Origin: a virus
Strand: one strand, 5' to 3'
IMG/VR virus record: IMGVR_UViG_3300036785_000488
Location: 1 to 64,000 of that record
Length of the DNA: 64,000 nt
Every line of letters starts with the position of its first letter. Position 1 is the first letter of the stretch. The notes below the pieces were generated by a model. The model was not told the DNA's origin and did not search any database. It saw nothing but the letters and a program-made list of their open reading frames with translations. The translations under genes were made by a program, and so were the position numbers. This document shows, in pieces, positions 12,171 to 49,261 of this stretch.

Positions 12171-12177
12171 GGAGACC

Positions 12178-12211
12178 ATGGTAGCAGGTTCACACAGGTG
12201 ATTTCGGTCAG
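12178..12211 (-). promoter_or_regulatory. CTGAC-22-TANNNT promoter
   Basis: CTGACC-22 nt-TACCAT. Confidence 0.75.
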
Positions 12212-15570: not shown

Positions 15571-15606
15571 GAGACCATGGTAGCAGGCTCACACACCAGA
15601 TTTCGG

Positions 15607-15774: not shown

Positions 15775-16082
15775 GACCGACGCCGTGGTCCGGTGCGCGT
15801 CGTCTGGAACTCACTCACCCAGTGCTCCTGGGCGAGCTTGAACCAGTGGGCGTCCTGCTCGGGCGTGAGCACGGCCAAGTGCCAACCGGCACCCTTGATG
15901 CCCTTGCCGTCCTTGCGGACCTTGTTGCCCTCGGCGTGGACGGCATGTGCCTCGTCAAGGGTGAGGTCGACCTTGATCCTCTTCACCTCGATGAGGTCAC
16001 CGTTCGGCCACGGGTCCTGGGCGCGGAAACGCTCGTCGGCCTCCAGGTCGAATGTGATGAAGAGTTGAGTGTCGACGTTCAT
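15771..16082 (-). CDS. Hypothetical protein
   Basis: Coupled to its neighbours. Confidence 0.65.
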   Translation of the reverse strand: MNVDTQLFITFDLEADERFRAQDPWPNGDLIEVKRIKVDLTLDEAHAVHAEGNKVRKDGKGIKGAGWHLAVLTPEQDAHWFKLAQEHWVSEFQTTRTGPRRRS

Positions 16083-16381
16083 GACTCCCCCCTGGCAACG
16101 CGGTTCAGCTCGTCGGTCGGGATGCGGACCTTGACGATGAGGTTGGTGGTCTCCTTGCGACCGTTGAAGTAGAAGGTGACCGTGCGCGCAGCCTGGTCGA
16201 TGATGTGGTCGGTGTCACGGCGGAACTCCCTCTCCAGGGTGGCGAGGTCGTCGGAGCGACGCACGGTGAAGACAGCGTCACTGCCATCGGCGGCGTCGCG
16301 CACCAGGATGAAGCGGCGGCGGCTCGACACGCGGATCTTCTCTCCGAGAGGCAGCGTGTAGGTGGTTGGGTTCGGGTACAT
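16079..16381 (-). CDS. Hypothetical protein
   Basis: RBS GAAAGGAA. Confidence 0.7.
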   Translation of the reverse strand: MYPNPTTYTLPLGEKIRVSSRRRFILVRDAADGSDAVFTVRRSDDLATLEREFRRDTDHIIDQAARTVTFYFNGRKETTNLIVKVRIPTDELNRVARGES

Positions 16382-16399
16382 GAGTGTGGTCTCTGTTCC

Positions 16400-16781
16400 T
16401 TTCTGCCAGGCCCGACCATCGGGCTGGCATGGCGCTCTGCTCCGGTCATGATCCGGTGCCGCCTACACGAGGCAGAGCGTGCTGCTCATGAGCTGAATGA
16501 GAGAGTCTGGGCCAGCCCTATCGTCCCCTTGCCATCCCCCATCGATGCACCTCCGGGTTACTCTCCAGGTATTTTCGGGCTGTTCTCCAAGTTCGCTCCC
16601 CTTACCTTTCGCCCTCCACACACGTTCATTCAGGGATCCTCCACCGTTCTCAGGTGGCTGGTGGTCGTTAGCCGTCAGCGTGGTTTCATCGGGTTACTTG
16701 CGAGGGCACCTCCTCGGTCCCAGGCTCTGTCATTCAGCTCATGTCATGTCTTTGAGATGTGGTCTCCTCTCACTCGGTGGT
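16400..16781 (-). ncRNA. Candidate large structured ncRNA or structured leader
   Basis: Has its own promoter (16788-16821) and no credible ORF. A 25-bp closing stem (16487-16511 with 16719-16743) encloses several helices. Confidence 0.6.
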
Positions 16782-16850
16782 GACACCATGGTACCAGGTT
16801 CACACAGTGAATCGTACGCAGGTGTGCGAGTTTTTTGTTGCAGTTTGGTG

Positions 16851-17738: not shown

Positions 17739-17745
17739 GGGGACC

Positions 17746-17879
17746 ATGGTAGCAGGTACACACAGTGGATCGTACGCAGATAGGCGGATTTCTCCAGAAA
17801 AAAGTTTTCGTCTCTGACCTGGACATTCACCTATTTTGACTCATCCTGCTGTGTGGTAGGGCATTTTCACCTGTACAGT
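17746..17879. promoter_or_regulatory. Divergent promoter pair at the strand switch
   Basis: Minus strand: CTGCGT-22-TACCAT. Plus strand: CTGCTG-22-TACAGT. An A/T tract lies between them. Confidence 0.7.
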
Positions 17880-20285: not shown

Positions 20286-21497
20286 CCGACAACAATTACA
20301 TCCACCGCTACGCCGAGAACCTCGGCCACGGGCGCGGCATTATGCGGGTCGACATCGTCGTCCACGGCAAGCTGGTCAACTCTCACCTGGAGGGTTCACC
20401 GGCTCCCATCGAGACTGTGCGCGCCCATGAGAGCAAGCACATGATCGGGGACAAGCTGGCCGACGACCACGGCAACACCATCGCCCAGGAGGGCTGCGAC
20501 CGCTGCTTCTGCGGCTGCAAGTACTGGGAGTTCGACCGCTGTGTCGACTGCGGCACGCACATCTCCGAGATCAACAAGGAAAACCGATGAACACTCGTAT
20601 CTTCCAAGAGACCACCGAGGAGTACCTCGACGCACATCACCCCGGCGTCTTCAACATGCACCGCATGGGTGAAAACCTCTGGTCCACGCTTTGCACCATG
20701 GCCGAGAAGGGCGGCTGGCGCGACGGCTCAGGCTGGATCTGGTCGAACCGTTCGACCCAAATCAAGATGTGCCAGTCGCTGGTCAAGCGTGGCTTCGTCA
20801 CCGTTGACGAGACCAATCCACAGCACCCACGGTTCACCACCGATCCCATCATCATAGGGATCTACCAGAACAAAGAGCGTGAGCTGGCGCGTGAACGTGC
20901 GGCGGCACGACGCCCCCAGGAGATCGCCAACGCCCTGGCAAGCCAACACACCAAGGCCCACCATTACGCCGTCGACCTGCTCATCTGGTTCCACCAGGTG
21001 GAGTACGACGAGTTGATGCAGCAGTACAAGGACGAGCACCCCGTGGAGGCGAACGCATGAGCACCACTCTCGGCTTCGTCTACAAGTACGAGAACCGGGC
21101 AGTGGCTGTCCATGCCGTGATCGACGGCAAGCCACTGTGCGGCACCGAGGTGGATATGACATCCTTTGAGACCTACCTCGGACAGCCCGACGACATCACC
21201 TGTCGTCGGTGCAAGATGTCAGTCAGCCACCGTGGGCACACGGTCGAAGAGCCTGGCGCGCAGGCAAGTGCTGACACAGTCCCGCAAACGCGTGAGCGGG
21301 ACACCTTCACCGACCTCCTGGGGCACCTGCGTGCCTTCCATGGCATGCCCGACTGCTTCAGGGCGGTCGACGGCGTCGAGGACAACATCCGTGAGCTGCA
21401 TGCCAAGTACCACCAGACACAGCCACCTGGGGCGAACTTTGGCAAGACCGCCCCTCCCCACTCTGCGGGAGATCTCACATATTTCTCTTCGCCCTGA
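20282..21497 (+). CDS. Three coupled small genes (20282-20590 Cys-rich; 20587-21060 wHTH-like; 21057-21497 Zn-binding)
   Basis: ATGA overlaps; CDRCFCGCKYWEFDRCVDC; H...PLCG...CRRC. Confidence 0.65.
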
Positions 21498-21534
21498 CTT
21501 GCATCTGTCACAACCATCCTGTACCCTTATGGAC

Positions 21535-22473
21535 ATGGCTACCACTACCAAAACCAAGAGCACCAGCTCTCCCAGGGACACCTACGCCGACGTGACAGCA
21601 CGAGTGCTTGAGGCTCTCGACGCTGGCACGGTCATGTGGCACAAGCCCTGGGTCAGCACCGACGGCGGGCCGGTCAACATCGATTCCAACCGCCGGTACC
21701 GGGGCATCAACGTGTTCCTGCTTGAGTTCACCGCCATGGAGAAGGGCTACAGCTCGTCTCGCTGGGGCAGCTACAAGCAGATCGCCGCTCGGGGCGGGCA
21801 GGTCCGCAAGGGCGAGAAGGGCACGCTGGTTGTGTTCTGGAAGATCCTTCGCAAGGAGGACAAGGTCGACGGCGAGACGCAGGTCAAGAAGATCCCCTTC
21901 CTGCGCCACTACACCGTGTTCAACGAGGACCAGGCTGACTGGGACGACCCCGAGACCGACAAGCGGCGCAAGCCTGCTGAGCGCGTCGAGCGCGACCCCA
22001 TCGAGGCGGCGCAGGAGCTGCTCACTGAGTACCTCGCCACCGGCCCCTCGCTGAGCCACGGGGGCGACAGGGCCTTCTACGTGCCGTCGTCCGACAGCAT
22101 CCGCCTGCCGCACATCGGTGACTTCAAGAGTGCTGAGCACTACCACAGCACCCTGTTCCACGAGGTGACGCACAGCACCGGCCACAGCAAGCGGCTGGCG
22201 CGTGACGGCATCGCCCAGGGCAGCTTCGGACGGTTCGGGGACGCGGTCTACTCCAAGGAGGAGCTGATCGCTGAAATGGGTGCAGCCATGCTCTGCGGCG
22301 TCGCTGGGATCGACCAGGCGGCGACCATCCCCGAGACCGCCGCCTACTTGGCGCACTGGCGTGACGCCCTGCGGGCCGACAACAAGCTGATCGTGCAGGC
22401 GGCGGCGCAGGCGCAGAAAGCTGCGGACCTCGTCCTCGGCACCACGTTCGACACCAACAAGGAGGAGTCATGA
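21535..22473 (+). CDS. ardC: ArdC-family ssDNA-binding antirestriction protein with zincin domain
   Basis: WHKPW, YRGIN, YKQ...GGQVRKGEKG, VFNEDQ, AFY, FHEVTHSTGH, YSKEELIAE. Confidence 0.9.
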   Translation: MATTTKTKSTSSPRDTYADVTARVLEALDAGTVMWHKPWVSTDGGPVNIDSNRRYRGINVFLLEFTAMEKGYSSSRWGSYKQIAARGGQVRKGEKGTLVVFWKILRKEDKVDGETQVKKIPFLRHYTVFNEDQADWDDPETDKRRKPAERVERDPIEAAQELLTEYLATGPSLSHGGDRAFYVPSSDSIRLPHIGDFKSAEHYHSTLFHEVTHSTGHSKRLARDGIAQGSFGRFGDAVYSKEELIAEMGAAMLCGVAGIDQAATIPETAAYLAHWRDALRADNKLIVQAAAQAQKAADLVLGTTFDTNKEES

Positions 22474-22704
22474 ACACGATCCAGCGCGCCGTTCACATGA
22501 TGGACTGCGAGGACAACGTCAAGCGTGCCGTCACCACCTGGGCTGAGCTGATCCCAACAACCCACACAAGCTCTTCACCTTCGGGACCGAGGGCGACCTC
22601 TGGCGTGCGCGCTGCTACTGCGGCTGGGACAGCGAGTGGTTCGACACCAAGAAGGAGGCCCGTGAGGCACAGGTCGAGCACGACCTCTCAGAGCGTCTGA
22701 AGGG

Positions 22705-23229
22705 TTGGACATGAGCACCAAGGTGGTGACTGCTGATGACCTGCGCCCCGGCGACCATGTGGTTGCCGTGGGCGACGAGGCCGTCGACTTCAAGGTGCTG
22801 ACTGTCCACACGCACACGCACACCCGTGGCGGTGGGGTCACCATCGACCTGTACACCACCCGTGACCCGTGGCCCAACATCTACCTGGATGCGGAAGAGC
22901 TGGTGACCATCACAGTGAATGACCCGGTCCCAGTCGTACAGCACCAGGAACTGACCTGGCAGGAACGACAACGGTGGGGCCGGGACTCGCAGTGGCGTTG
23001 GTGGTACCACCCACCGGGCAGCCAGACCGGCTACTTGGTGACCGGTGAAGGCAGCAAGGAGCGACTGCTCCCGAAGAAAGACTGGCGCAAGCTGCCTCCG
23101 GTCAGCACCGGCTTCCACCGCATCCCCGACGATCCTGAGACCGGCAACCGCATGTGCGCCTGCAACAAGTGCGGCAAGGAGATGACCACACTGTCCATCG
23201 GCTACCACCGACAGAACACAGGTCACTGA
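22705..23229 (+). CDS. Hypothetical protein
   Basis: VTADDLRPGD SH3-like start; C-terminal CNKC. Confidence 0.6.
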   Translation: MDMSTKVVTADDLRPGDHVVAVGDEAVDFKVLTVHTHTHTRGGGVTIDLYTTRDPWPNIYLDAEELVTITVNDPVPVVQHQELTWQERQRWGRDSQWRWWYHPPGSQTGYLVTGEGSKERLLPKKDWRKLPPVSTGFHRIPDDPETGNRMCACNKCGKEMTTLSIGYHRQNTGH

Positions 23230-23292
23230 CATGACACATCTTTTCTTTCGTCCTGACTTGTATCCAGACCCCCAAGGTGGTATCTTCTAGAC

Positions 23293-23679
23293 ATGGCTAC
23301 TGACACCGAACACTGGTTCATCAATCACGACAACCTCGTCATCACGGCGAGCTGGATGGCCGACAACGGCTACTCAGCCGGAGCCGTCGCACGCATGATC
23401 GAGAAGCCCTGGACGTACGAGGATGAGTTCAAGGCGGCTCGCATAGAGCTGGGCGAGAGTGCCGCCAAGCCGACACCTGGACAGGGGGACGAGCTGTTCC
23501 CTGAGGGTCGCCAGGTCTGGTACGAGGGCGATGACCCCAGGGGGTTCCTCGTCGCCATCAAAGAGCGTTTCGACCTTGAGCTGGAGCTGAAGGAAGACCA
23601 GTCGGGCTTCGCCTTCTTCTGCCCGCCTGGGTACGTCGATGCCATCGTCTACACCAATGAATGGCCTATCGGAACATGA
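23293..23679 (+). CDS. Hypothetical protein, leaderless MAT start
   Basis: Promoter CTGACT-22-TATCTT at 23253-23286. Confidence 0.7.
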   Translation: MATDTEHWFINHDNLVITASWMADNGYSAGAVARMIEKPWTYEDEFKAARIELGESAAKPTPGQGDELFPEGRQVWYEGDDPRGFLVAIKERFDLELELKEDQSGFAFFCPPGYVDAIVYTNEWPIGT

Positions 23680-47597: not shown

Positions 47598-49261
47598 ACA
47601 CAGTGATCCCCGGCAACGAGTACTGCTTGGTGCGGCAGATCGCCATCGCCAACTATCCAGGAGCCAAGTGGCTCCCGACGATGTTCGGACAGACCGGAGC
47701 GCCGCCCGCAGTACCGGACGATCTCCTCTACGTCACAACGCAACCGGACACAACCGACTGGCCGTTCGACTCCACCCATTTCACTTGTTTCATGCCGACA
47801 TGGAGTAACGACTTCCCGATGGACTGTTACGTCACGGCGATCTGGTTGATGCCCGACAAGTACGGGAGCCAGGATCCGAACGACACTCAGTTCACCGACA
47901 TACCAGGCACCTTCACCTGGACCGGCAACAACCTGCCACCTCCACCCATTCCGGTTGAGTTCACCATCGTCGGTCATCTTCCAGCCACCGGAGGAACCGT
48001 CACACTCGTAGCGCAGACAAACGACTTCACACAAGTAACGGGGTCCATCGGCTGGGGTGCTGGATCCACCAGTGGAGGAGCATTGTCGTGGGCGCTCATT
48101 GACCCTTGGGACATCTCGGCCACCTTTGATGACTTCACACAGTTCGGATTCGACACCGGAACGACGGTGACCATCTATCTCTACGACCAGTACAACCAAG
48201 AGATCGGTCAGCAAGACACGGTGTTGTCCTATGGAACCCTCCCAGGAACAGTCACGTTGGCGGCGACATCATCCCTGACGTTGGCAACGACAACAACGCC
48301 GGGACCAAAGGTGACGATGGCTGCGTCAGCCGGTCTCATGATGGCTGCGACAACAGCGCCACCACCCCCTATCTTCACGGCGACACCGACGACGATGCCG
48401 ATGGGCGGCGGCACGATGACACTGACAGCAACAGGCGGGAACGACTTCAATGCGGTGAACTGGGTCGGCTACAGCAGTACCCCCGACGACACCGGATCAA
48501 AGGGAGCCATGGTGTCGTGGCAGTACATCGACACAACACACATCACTTGCGTCCTACCGAACCTCGGTTACACCACGACACTGTGGGTGGAGGTGGAGGG
48601 TCTCGGTTGGAACGAGGCGTTCTCAGTAAACCAGGTGGCAGTGACAAGTGATGCGGTCAAACTGAGTTCCATCTCACCAACCATCGGTCAGGAAGGCGAC
48701 GCCCTCACACTCACCGGTACCGGGTTTCTCAGCTTGCCACTCGATGCTGGTGGCAAGCCGCTCGTCTACTTCCTATCCGGTTACGGCTATCCAGAGACCA
48801 GTCCGGATGATGTGACCGTAGTCGAGGTCAACGACACCACGATCACATGCATAATCCCGTATCTGGATCCGTTCTACGACACACCGAACACCTATTACGT
48901 CGGCCTGCTATCCGCTCAGTGGGATGGTGTTGGACCGCCACCGGTTATTCCTTCTCCACAGCCACTGATACCAACTGCCTTCACGGTCTCACCGACGACG
49001 ATGTCCGCTGCTGCTGGCGGCACGTTCACTCTCAGCGCAAACCTAAACGTAGGCAACTTCACTCAGGTCACCGACGTGCAGTGGATCGGCGTTTCAGTGT
49101 CGGGTGAGGGTGCACCGTCGAACTGGACGCTCGTCAACCCAACGACGATCACAGCGTCGTTCAATAACTTGCACATCCTCAGCCCAGGAGCCGTGATCGC
49201 TCTCCAAGTAACGATCAGCGGTCAAACGATTATTGGTGAGCCGTACGTGATACTGACGTAG
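47594..49261 (+). CDS. Thr-rich multi-Ig (IPT/TIG-like) virion protein
   Basis: LSSISPTIGQEGDALTLTGTGF; repeated GGTxTL...NDF segments. Confidence 0.75.
   Translation: MNTVIPGNEYCLVRQIAIANYPGAKWLPTMFGQTGAPPAVPDDLLYVTTQPDTTDWPFDSTHFTCFMPTWSNDFPMDCYVTAIWLMPDKYGSQDPNDTQFTDIPGTFTWTGNNLPPPPIPVEFTIVGHLPATGGTVTLVAQTNDFTQVTGSIGWGAGSTSGGALSWALIDPWDISATFDDFTQFGFDTGTTVTIYLYDQYNQEIGQQDTVLSYGTLPGTVTLAATSSLTLATTTTPGPKVTMAASAGLMMAATTAPPPPIFTATPTTMPMGGGTMTLTATGGNDFNAVNWVGYSSTPDDTGSKGAMVSWQYIDTTHITCVLPNLGYTTTLWVEVEGLGWNEAFSVNQVAVTSDAVKLSSISPTIGQEGDALTLTGTGFLSLPLDAGGKPLVYFLSGYGYPETSPDDVTVVEVNDTTITCIIPYLDPFYDTPNTYYVGLLSAQWDGVGPPPVIPSPQPLIPTAFTVSPTTMSAAAGGTFTLSANLNVGNFTQVTDVQWIGVSVSGEGAPSNWTLVNPTTITASFNNLHILSPGAVIALQVTISGQTIIGEPYVILT

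Follow-up and report, generated by a model that had tools for sequence, protein, structure and literature searches.

Which kind of gene, if any, occupies the long gap in front of a small phage gene of no obvious function? The question arose from a 64,000-nucleotide (nt) stretch of virus DNA (here called the window; positions 1 to 64,000 of IMG/VR record IMGVR_UViG_3300036785_000488), in which, within a minus-strand block of small genes, 469 nt separate the stop codon of the p298 gene (16851) from the ATG of the p100 gene (16381). A preliminary description of this DNA had proposed a structured noncoding RNA (ncRNA) of about 400 nt with its own promoter and a 25-base-pair (bp) closing stem. Comparison with related sequences indicated that window positions 16487 to 16743 on the minus strand are the gene for a real structured ncRNA of 257 nt, which consists of a 25-bp closing helix and a 207-nt two-domain core. 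The parts of this element and its 3' neighborhood were assigned as follows.

16719 to 16743, minus strand: 5' arm of the P1/P2 closing helix, 25 nt, 23 of 25 paired with 16487 to 16511.
16586 to 16718, minus strand: 5' domain, enclosed by the covarying helix P3 and carrying the variable hairpin CCACC-UGAGAAC-GGUGG.
16513 to 16583, minus strand: 3' domain, with helices P10 (CAGCCC/GGGCUG), P11 and P12 and purine-rich internal loops.
16544 to 16551, minus strand: self-complementary P12 loop GGUGCAUC, a candidate kissing-loop dimerization site.
16487 to 16511, minus strand: 3' arm of the P1/P2 closing helix, 25 nt, supported by the fold and by family covariation.
16394 to 16486, minus strand: two extra hairpins, 3' of the RNA and part of the insert described below, seen in the fold.

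The arms of the closing helix were paired in both the minimum free energy and the centroid folds (-166 kcal/mol, z -2.4, with 1 of 100 shuffles equally good), and as a flank duplex the window arms were better than 100 of 100 shuffles. The long closing stem of the preliminary description was therefore retained, as was the purine-rich core within it, which is 207 nt long and 62% purine. Two motifs in the 5' domain, GAGGUGCCCUCGCAAGUA (16712 to 16695) and GAAAGGUAAGGGGAGCGAA (16610 to 16592), were nearly invariant, with the family consensus sequences GAKGUGCCYUCGCRAGUA and GAAMGGUAAGGGGAGCGAA. Five inner helices had also been put forward, and family covariation upheld CCACC/GGUGG and CAGCCC/GGGCUG but not the other three: ACCU/AGGU and AUCG/CGAU lay outside the consensus fold, and the GCCCUC/GAGGGC pairing was replaced by helices P4 and P5, the GGG of GAGGGC covarying with ACCC at 16694 to 16691 and GCCCU pairing with AGGGG. 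Two segments, GAGAGUAACCGG and GAAGGUGGUGGA, are reminiscent of the sarcin-ricin loop and of the 3' end of 16S rRNA, respectively; this is a likeness by eye only, and the CCGG strand covaried freely.

The extent of the element was defined by a second phage, G006, which has a p100 homologue and, about 4 kb away in an oppositely oriented gene block, an 82% identical copy of the arm-bounded element. Homology between the two phages began exactly at the first base of the 5' arm and stopped shortly beyond the final base of the 3' arm. Because this homology was bounded by the arms, the unit was taken to be the 257-nt element and not the whole 400 nt. The two further stem-loops of the preliminary description were found as described, at 16486 to 16394, but G006, which supplied the only other 3' flank that was compared in detail, has neither of them; one soil contig (run X3) carried part of the first hairpin. 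A terminator scan detected no U-tract at these hairpins, which could be terminators without a U-tract or hairpins for processing or stability.

Relatives were sought with a 32-nt block identical in the window and G006 plus a second, independent motif, and matches were filtered with a covariance model. Thirteen further copies were obtained from metagenome and IMG/VR contigs, which brought the family to 15 copies; about 12 of the 14 copies other than that of the window were distinct. Pattern matches at six other loci (L048, L050, L053, L054, L058 and L059) failed the models and were treated as chance. Eleven other members, with the window and G006 copies left out, served to build a 5'-domain model (R2), whose sole hit in the 64-kb window was at 16586 to 16718 (91.1 bits, E = 5e-23), and a 3'-domain model (R3), likewise built from other members without the window copy, had its sole hit at 16513 to 16583 (40.9 bits, E = 3e-7). 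The RNA was single copy per genome in seven phage records of 22 to 128 kb, four of which are 93 to 100% complete; one member (L047) lies at 48509 to 48762 of record G010. The carriers were tailed phages of 52 to 72% G+C from soil and other environments and are probably actinophages.

When the window region and the 5' domain of member L055 were used as blastn queries, no copy was detected among 50,697 cultured or deposited phage records. The 5 hits of an 18-mer scan of 185,579 species genomes were taken as chance because none fitted the covariance model. Rfam 15 gave no hit in the whole window at gathering thresholds, and at E values of up to 10 the region gave chance-level hits only, all outside the RNA; seven other members and a half-size variant (L061) were also without a hit. 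The families that failed to match include ROOL, GOLLD, OLE, raiA, HEARO, 6S, Y RNA-like, RNase P, transfer-messenger RNA (tmRNA), introns and riboswitches. Neither in the window nor at the position of the RNA in 13 loci did ARAGORN call a transfer RNA (tRNA) or tmRNA gene. The earlier failure to match tRNA, tmRNA, RNase P or intron signatures was thus borne out by these searches. Judged by Rfam 15, phage records and the literature, this RNA family is undescribed so far.

Support for the fold came from covariation. The window and G006 copies alone differed by 10 compensated pairs. A model-free alignment (MAFFT and RNAalifold) recovered the same helices, with compensatory changes in 26 of 39 pairs. 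In the model-fitted alignment, 95.8% of cells were paired, compared to 35 to 43% in slid controls, and 50 of 66 pairs had changed on both sides, values reached in 0 of 500 shuffles; as such counts lean toward the model, the model-free alignment was given more weight. All 16 pairs of terminal helices 1 and 2 covaried across the family. Covariation was clearest in the terminal helix, P3 (CCGAG/CUUGG in the window), the 3-bp P5, the variable hairpin and P10 to P12; P5, for example, is CCC/GGG in the window and GGC/GCC, GCC/GGC, GCA/UGC or CCA/UGG in other members. The flanks of the core formed a long helix in 9 of 13 members, each better than 100 of 100 shuffles, and the sequences of these helices were unrelated. 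Conserved G-U pairs assigned the fold to the sense strand of the neighboring genes, with which every copy was co-oriented.

The opposite possibility, that the gap holds no functional RNA and is a decayed gene or a missed small open reading frame (ORF) with chance structure, might be suggested by a 52-codon GTG ORF inside the stretch (16463 to 16621) and by antisense frames over the RNA that are often open. The fifteen copies nevertheless have covarying helices in common, and no frame was open in all members: each of the six frames had stops in several members, indels broke the frame and the spacing of the invariant motifs covered every value modulo 3. Translated similarity was spread over at least five frames at once, which indicated that conservation is at the nucleotide level, and the scarcity of antisense stops was due only to the approximately 60% purine content of the RNA strand. 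This explanation is refuted as far as the comparative data allow, and we assign it a negligible probability. Overall, these comparisons demonstrated at the level of sequence that the fold is conserved, that the sequence is noncoding and that the window element belongs to the family. The central proposal of the preliminary description, a structured ncRNA, was thereby upheld: heavy covariation was present in the model-free and the model-fitted alignments alike, and an ORF conserved across the interval was not found.

The loop of P12 has a distinctive composition. It reads GAG-[N8-12]-GAU, and its center was self-complementary in 13 of 13 members. Seven versions of the palindrome were present, GGUGCAUC in the window (whose self-duplex includes two G-U pairs) and GUGGCCAC, GUGCGCAC, GCGGCCGC, AGUGCGCGCU, GGUGUGCACGCC and GGGUGGCCACCU, and 51 of 52 palindrome cells (98%) were complementary. 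The two central nucleotides are adjacent and cannot pair within one chain, and these switch between GC and CG; the next pair outwards switches between G-C and U-A, giving GGCC, GCGC and UGCA as variants of the central tetranucleotide. Switches of this kind (GGCC/GAUC/AGCU) supported the symmetric kissing loops seen by cryo-electron microscopy (cryo-EM) in OLE and GOLLD (Kretsch et al., PMC12286853). From the pattern of switches we infer that two copies of the RNA pair through the P12 loop as a symmetric dimer.

A half-size variant of the RNA was represented by two loci of one phage.

L061 1490 to 1805 (G014, approximately 66760 to 67075), and also L051 7390 to 7700: half-size variant, 5' domain only.

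The variant is closed by its own stem, AGACAGUG/CACUGUCU. The occurrence of the 5' domain by itself at these loci indicated that this domain, with its near-invariant internal-loop core, is an autonomous unit. The sequence 3' of the variant differs from that of the other members: about 150 nt with two motifs like the T arm of tRNA (GGGGTTCGACTTCCC and GGCGGTTCGATTCCG) and a GC-rich hairpin were observed there; ARAGORN and Rfam recognized nothing in this region of L061.

The following features surround the element.

17747 to 16851, minus strand: p298, a 298-amino-acid ORF 5' of the RNA gap.
16786 to 16811, minus strand: promoter-like motif, the palindrome TTCAC-TGT-GTGAA followed by the -10-like TACCAT (16793 to 16788).
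16758 to 16766, minus strand: upstream copy of the direct repeat GAGACCACA, at the left edge of a 373-nt insert.
16385 to 16393, minus strand: downstream copy of GAGACCACA, at the right end of the insert and 3 nt upstream of the p100 start.
16079 to 16381, minus strand: p100, a 100-amino-acid protein whose 5' leader carries the RNA cassette.

The full 26-nt promoter-like motif was found again at 17744 to 17769. Its -10-like part, G[GC]TACCATGG, occurred on the minus strand at 12176 to 12185, 15575 to 15584, 16786 to 16795 and 17744 to 17753, and with one mismatch allowed there were 13 matches on both strands compared to 3.5 expected. An identical GTACCATGG was located 5' of the p100 homologue at locus L013 of a related phage. 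The motif that had been described as a class promoter is therefore a real recurring sequence, but a scan with the sigma-70 consensus called no promoter at 16786 to 16811; for this reason we can only infer that it acts as the promoter of the RNA and p100 leader. The listed ATG of p298 (17747) falls within one copy of G[GC]TACCATGG, so that the true start may lie elsewhere or the mRNA may be leaderless. A terminator scan also reported a plus-strand hairpin and T-run (TCGTACGCAGGTGTGCGA GTTTTTTGTT) at 16812 to 16829. This feature, which overlaps the promoter-like motif of the minus strand over the upstream half of the latter, may be a chance match or may function bidirectionally at the end of p298. 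Near-consensus promoters were located shortly upstream of the RNA at L047 (11 of 12 positions), L031 (10 of 12) and L061 (11 of 12), and in G006 a -10-like TATGAT ends 5 nt 5' of the helix.

We consider it moderately probable that the element specifies a stable, trans-acting, dimerizing phage RNA that is borne as a cassette in the p100 leader. The 373-nt cassette would have been inserted into that leader between two copies of GAGACCACA, a position that implies that the RNA borrows the promoter of p100. It would be transcribed early, as the first part of the operon transcript. The long terminal helix may then act as an excision site for a host RNase III-like nuclease or as an end protector; a cut by RNase III is plausible only through the long terminal helix present in 9 of 13 members. 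Two copies would join through the self-complementary loop of the 3' domain into a symmetric dimer, and the invariant 5'-domain core would provide a working surface that acts in trans on a host or phage protein, or on another ligand, during takeover of the cell. The roles suggested in the preliminary description, as a decoy for RNA polymerase or protein, an anti-defense RNA or a ribozyme, gained no direct support.

Several observations weigh against this proposal, besides the lean of the model-fitted counts mentioned above. Three members are without the long terminal helix. The palindrome states are common to related sequences, so that independent switches are few, at least two. L051 has the 5' domain only, and dimerization can therefore not be essential to the core function. 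An all-versus-all comparison of neighboring ORFs identified no protein common to most loci, and ArdC-like genes were near the RNA in only 4 of 9 phages. Finally, the RNA is in the leader of co-oriented genes at every locus, and in G006 the next start codon is only 24 nt away, an arrangement that fits a cis role as well.

A cis-acting leader is the main rival to a trans-acting RNA. Such a leader would be a riboswitch for a cell-state ligand or a put-like processive antiterminator that allows read-through of the following hairpins. The constant position of the RNA between a promoter and co-oriented genes, the short distance to the start codon in G006 and the two hairpins between the RNA and p100 in the window are all as expected for such an element, and the near-invariant internal loops resemble a pocket for a ligand or protein. 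The put RNAs of phage HK022 are about 70 nt long, consist of two simple stem-loops, act in cis and modify RNA polymerase. The new RNA resembles these in being structured and in its place between early phage promoters, which it directly follows, and terminator-like hairpins; it differs, in a comparison by description, in its long closing helix, its two-domain core and its dimerization loop. The closing helix, at 20 to 25 bp in most members, is far too stable for switching, and the downstream genes of different members are unrelated (p100, a 54-amino-acid ORF, an AAA_25 ATPase and unknowns); for these two reasons a switch was disfavored. In addition, no alternative pairing with a terminator or ribosome-binding site was conserved and no such platform was common to the window and G006, which lacks the 3' hairpins of the window. 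In L061 the RNA is followed by a GC-rich hairpin, and no co-oriented gene was apparent in the next 400 nt, read without an ORF scan. A dimerization loop also has no obvious role in a co-transcriptional switch. On balance, a cis-acting leader appears unlikely, and a trans-acting RNA is preferred.

The sites at which the RNA resides differ between related phages. At the three loci with a p100 homologue identified by a profile scan of IMG/VR (L013, L014 and L015), the leader was without the RNA: the gap of approximately 100 nt before the homologue held only a motif like a promoter and, next to the start codon, a ribosome-binding site. In the window, joining of the two GAGACCACA copies recreates GAGGAGACCACACUC-AUG, a strong ribosome-binding site with a 9-nt spacing, like the L013 to L015 leaders. 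The repeat at both ends had been noted in the preliminary description, and it was located at 16766 to 16758 and 16393 to 16385. Three copies of this 9-bp sequence were present in the 64 kb compared to 1.0 expected, and a repeat as long as GAGACCACA was obtained in 9 of 300 shuffles in a test of the flanks. The window's record (G000) and G006 have in common a gene order around a divergent promoter region, with p298, a PAPS-reductase-like gene and ArdC. The RNA of G006 is positioned after ArdC and an 87-amino-acid gene, and the corresponding site of the window was identified.

23233 to 23292, plus strand: empty counterpart of the G006 RNA site, homologous to the G006 promoter region and leading straight into the ATG at 23293.

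Conversely, the gap between p298 and p100 is filled by the RNA in G000 and empty in G006. The RNA sites of the two genomes are thus reciprocally empty. At L040, a 52-nt direct repeat (85% identical; 1070 to 1121 and 1525 to 1576) brackets the RNA, with a third partial copy at 920 to 929; this repeat may be a repeated intergenic regulatory element that possibly mediates cassette shuffling. Most other members had no bracketing repeat.

These arrangements could also be attributed to a mobile element or its remnant, or to a guide or scaffold RNA serving its own mobility, of the miniature inverted-repeat transposable element (MITE), IS200/IS605- or IS110-related, or retron msr-msd type. The 9-bp direct repeat around the insert, the 52-nt repeat around the L040 copy and the different sites in two related phages are compatible with such an origin, and the inverted-repeat ends resemble retron a1/a2. 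The direct repeats do not abut the arms, however, but lie 14 and 93 nt outside them, and the arm sequences differ wholly between members, which leaves no conserved site for binding of a transposase. As the RNA is single copy per genome and its arms are paired in spite of their different sequences, the arms are not MITE repeats, a reading that the preliminary description had left open. Among the flanking ORFs scanned with Pfam there was no transposase, TnpB/IscB or reverse transcriptase; the search for a retron reverse transcriptase covered ORFs flanking the RNA in the window and eight loci, and whole genomes were not searched. The Rfam models of HEARO, group II introns and similar elements were silent. 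We regard this explanation as highly improbable, and the bracketing repeats are more simply explained by the shuffling of modules. Movement of the cassette would thus reflect recombination at repeated regulatory sequence and not transposition, as the RNA is single copy, its arms are unconserved in sequence and no transposase was present among the neighboring ORFs scanned. Small cassettes of other kinds are known from phages: in the PeSL cassettes of T4-type phages, ORFs are located between promoter and stem-loop repeats, and the MPMEs of mycobacteriophages are ultra-small mobile elements with terminal inverted repeats and a gene for a small transposase. The new cassette is similar to these in being small, in occupying differing sites in related phages and in being bracketed by repeated regulatory sequence; it differs in that it carries a conserved structured RNA only.

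Mobility between sites is also a property of some ribozyme-bearing elements, and the RNA could be a ribozyme in which the invariant core is the active site and the long helix joins the ends. Two near-invariant blocks in a covarying scaffold, maintained across diverged members, are typical of catalytic or ligand-binding cores. The argument is one from conservation alone: at E values of up to 10 no ribozyme or intron model of Rfam matched, there is no interrupted gene and no exon junction, and the sequence gives no hint of a cleavage site. A ribozyme is accordingly a highly improbable explanation. A trans-acting, dimerizing RNA remains the reading that we prefer, and it can be extended into a bolder proposal: the RNA would be a self-assembling small RNA that moves as a promoterless cassette behind the early promoters of soil actinophages, is excised, and forms an RNA-only symmetric dimer whose paired cores capture a host factor, for example, a component of defense or translation. 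In this complete form the proposal is speculative and, in our estimate, unlikely to hold in every part. If it is true, the "ornate" self-assembling RNAs would gain their first example of tractable size with a role in phage-host conflict that can be tested.

The phage itself was examined as a setting for the RNA. The source record, of which the window is part, is an 85-kb IMG/VR virus that is approximately 72% complete. A P2-I-like baseplate protein, an NlpC/P60 lysin and an ArdC-like anti-restriction gene characterize it as a tailed phage, and its proteins have a distant likeness to those of Mycobacterium, Microbacterium, Arthrobacter, Gordonia and Streptomyces phages. Near-identical DNA was found in soil metagenomes only. 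Among contigs of three soil runs, the same phage was detected in two runs (one of which is possibly the source sample of the window), and variants approximately 90% alike were detected in a third soil study; none of the contigs of the three runs bridged an empty version of the RNA site. The phage nearest by its helicase (L007, 56% amino acid identity) is without p298, p100 and the RNA. Five relatives of p100 were present in the protein database, the closest being P0002 (69% identity) and P0003 (61%). A protein-pattern scan of metagenome contigs for p100 relatives gave no match, and neither did single-protein scans of viral contigs with p298 and with p100.

Genes neighboring the RNA in the family were varied and phage-like (an amidase endolysin, a Mu-F-like protein, AAA_25 ATPases, ArdC-like proteins and many unknowns). 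Two metagenome contigs of high G+C (L035, 370 to 1596, and L040, 1543 to 2316) have an AAA_25 (RecA/DnaB-like) ATPase gene directly 3' of the RNA, the only downstream synteny common to two diverged members. G006 and L049 have an ArdC-like gene next to the RNA on its upstream side, in L051 such a gene is found no more than approximately 2 kb from the RNA, and G000 has the following one.

21166 to 22473, plus strand: ArdC-like protein of 435 amino acids, with ArdcN and zincin MPTase-PolyVal domains and an N-terminal extension of approximately 135 amino acids.

ArdC as an obligate partner of the RNA was considered and dropped, five other RNA-bearing genomes being without ArdC. Small ORFs with CxxC-like motifs were noted directly 3' of ArdC in the window (22470 to 22714, plus strand) and at L025 (3205 to 3468), and that of the window overlaps the ArdC stop codon.

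These findings indicate that soil phage genomes, probably those of actinophages, contain conserved RNA genes that are missed by ORF-based annotation. The movement of the cassette between promoters of related phages furthermore constitutes a natural experiment on the benefit of the RNA to the phage. The proposed mode of self-association has parallels in several systems. The dimerization initiation site of human immunodeficiency virus type 1 (HIV-1) is a hairpin loop in which purines flank a GC-rich palindrome (GCGCGC or GUGCAC). A purine-flanked loop palindrome is likewise present in the new RNA, and the palindromes of L055 and L049 are exactly GUGCAC and GCGCGC, respectively; the HIV-1 site is a signal on viral genomic RNA and not a separate ncRNA, and the likeness is one of mechanism only.

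OLE RNA, an Rfam family, forms a homodimer visible by cryo-EM and has a palindrome-switch signature of its symmetric pairing (PMC12286853); the corresponding signature here comprises GGCC, GCGC and UGCA and is known from sequence alone. OLE differs in several respects: it is encoded on the chromosomes of anaerobic Firmicutes, protein partners are known for it, its genomic context is another one, and it has no homology to the new RNA. ROOL (RF03087) and GOLLD (RF01998) are closer in setting: like the new RNA they are encoded by phages or prophages, have no known protein partner and adopt an elaborate covarying fold. Both self-associate by kissing loops, in GOLLD with the backing of palindrome-to-palindrome covariation (PMC12286853), and the likeness of the new RNA to them in this respect is drawn from its sequence. 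They are among the largest unexplained RNA folds, and their self-assembly was only recently shown by cryo-EM. Neither is homologous to the new RNA, whose Rfam comparison with their models was silent, and the linkage to tRNA genes, or tRNA-island setting, of ROOL and GOLLD was not seen with ARAGORN at the 13 loci. In contrast to ROOL and GOLLD, the new RNA is found in high-G+C soil phages, probably actinophages. Its core of approximately 180 to 240 nt compares with approximately 580 nt for ROOL and more than 800 nt for GOLLD. The new family thus represents an unrelated and much smaller example (approximately 200 to 260 nt), with a two-domain layout and a natural "half" variant made of the 5' domain, and its size is suited to crystallography, cryo-EM of the dimer and chemical probing. 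The detection of only one self-complementary loop suggests that the RNA would assemble into a dimer and not into a cage like those of ROOL and GOLLD.

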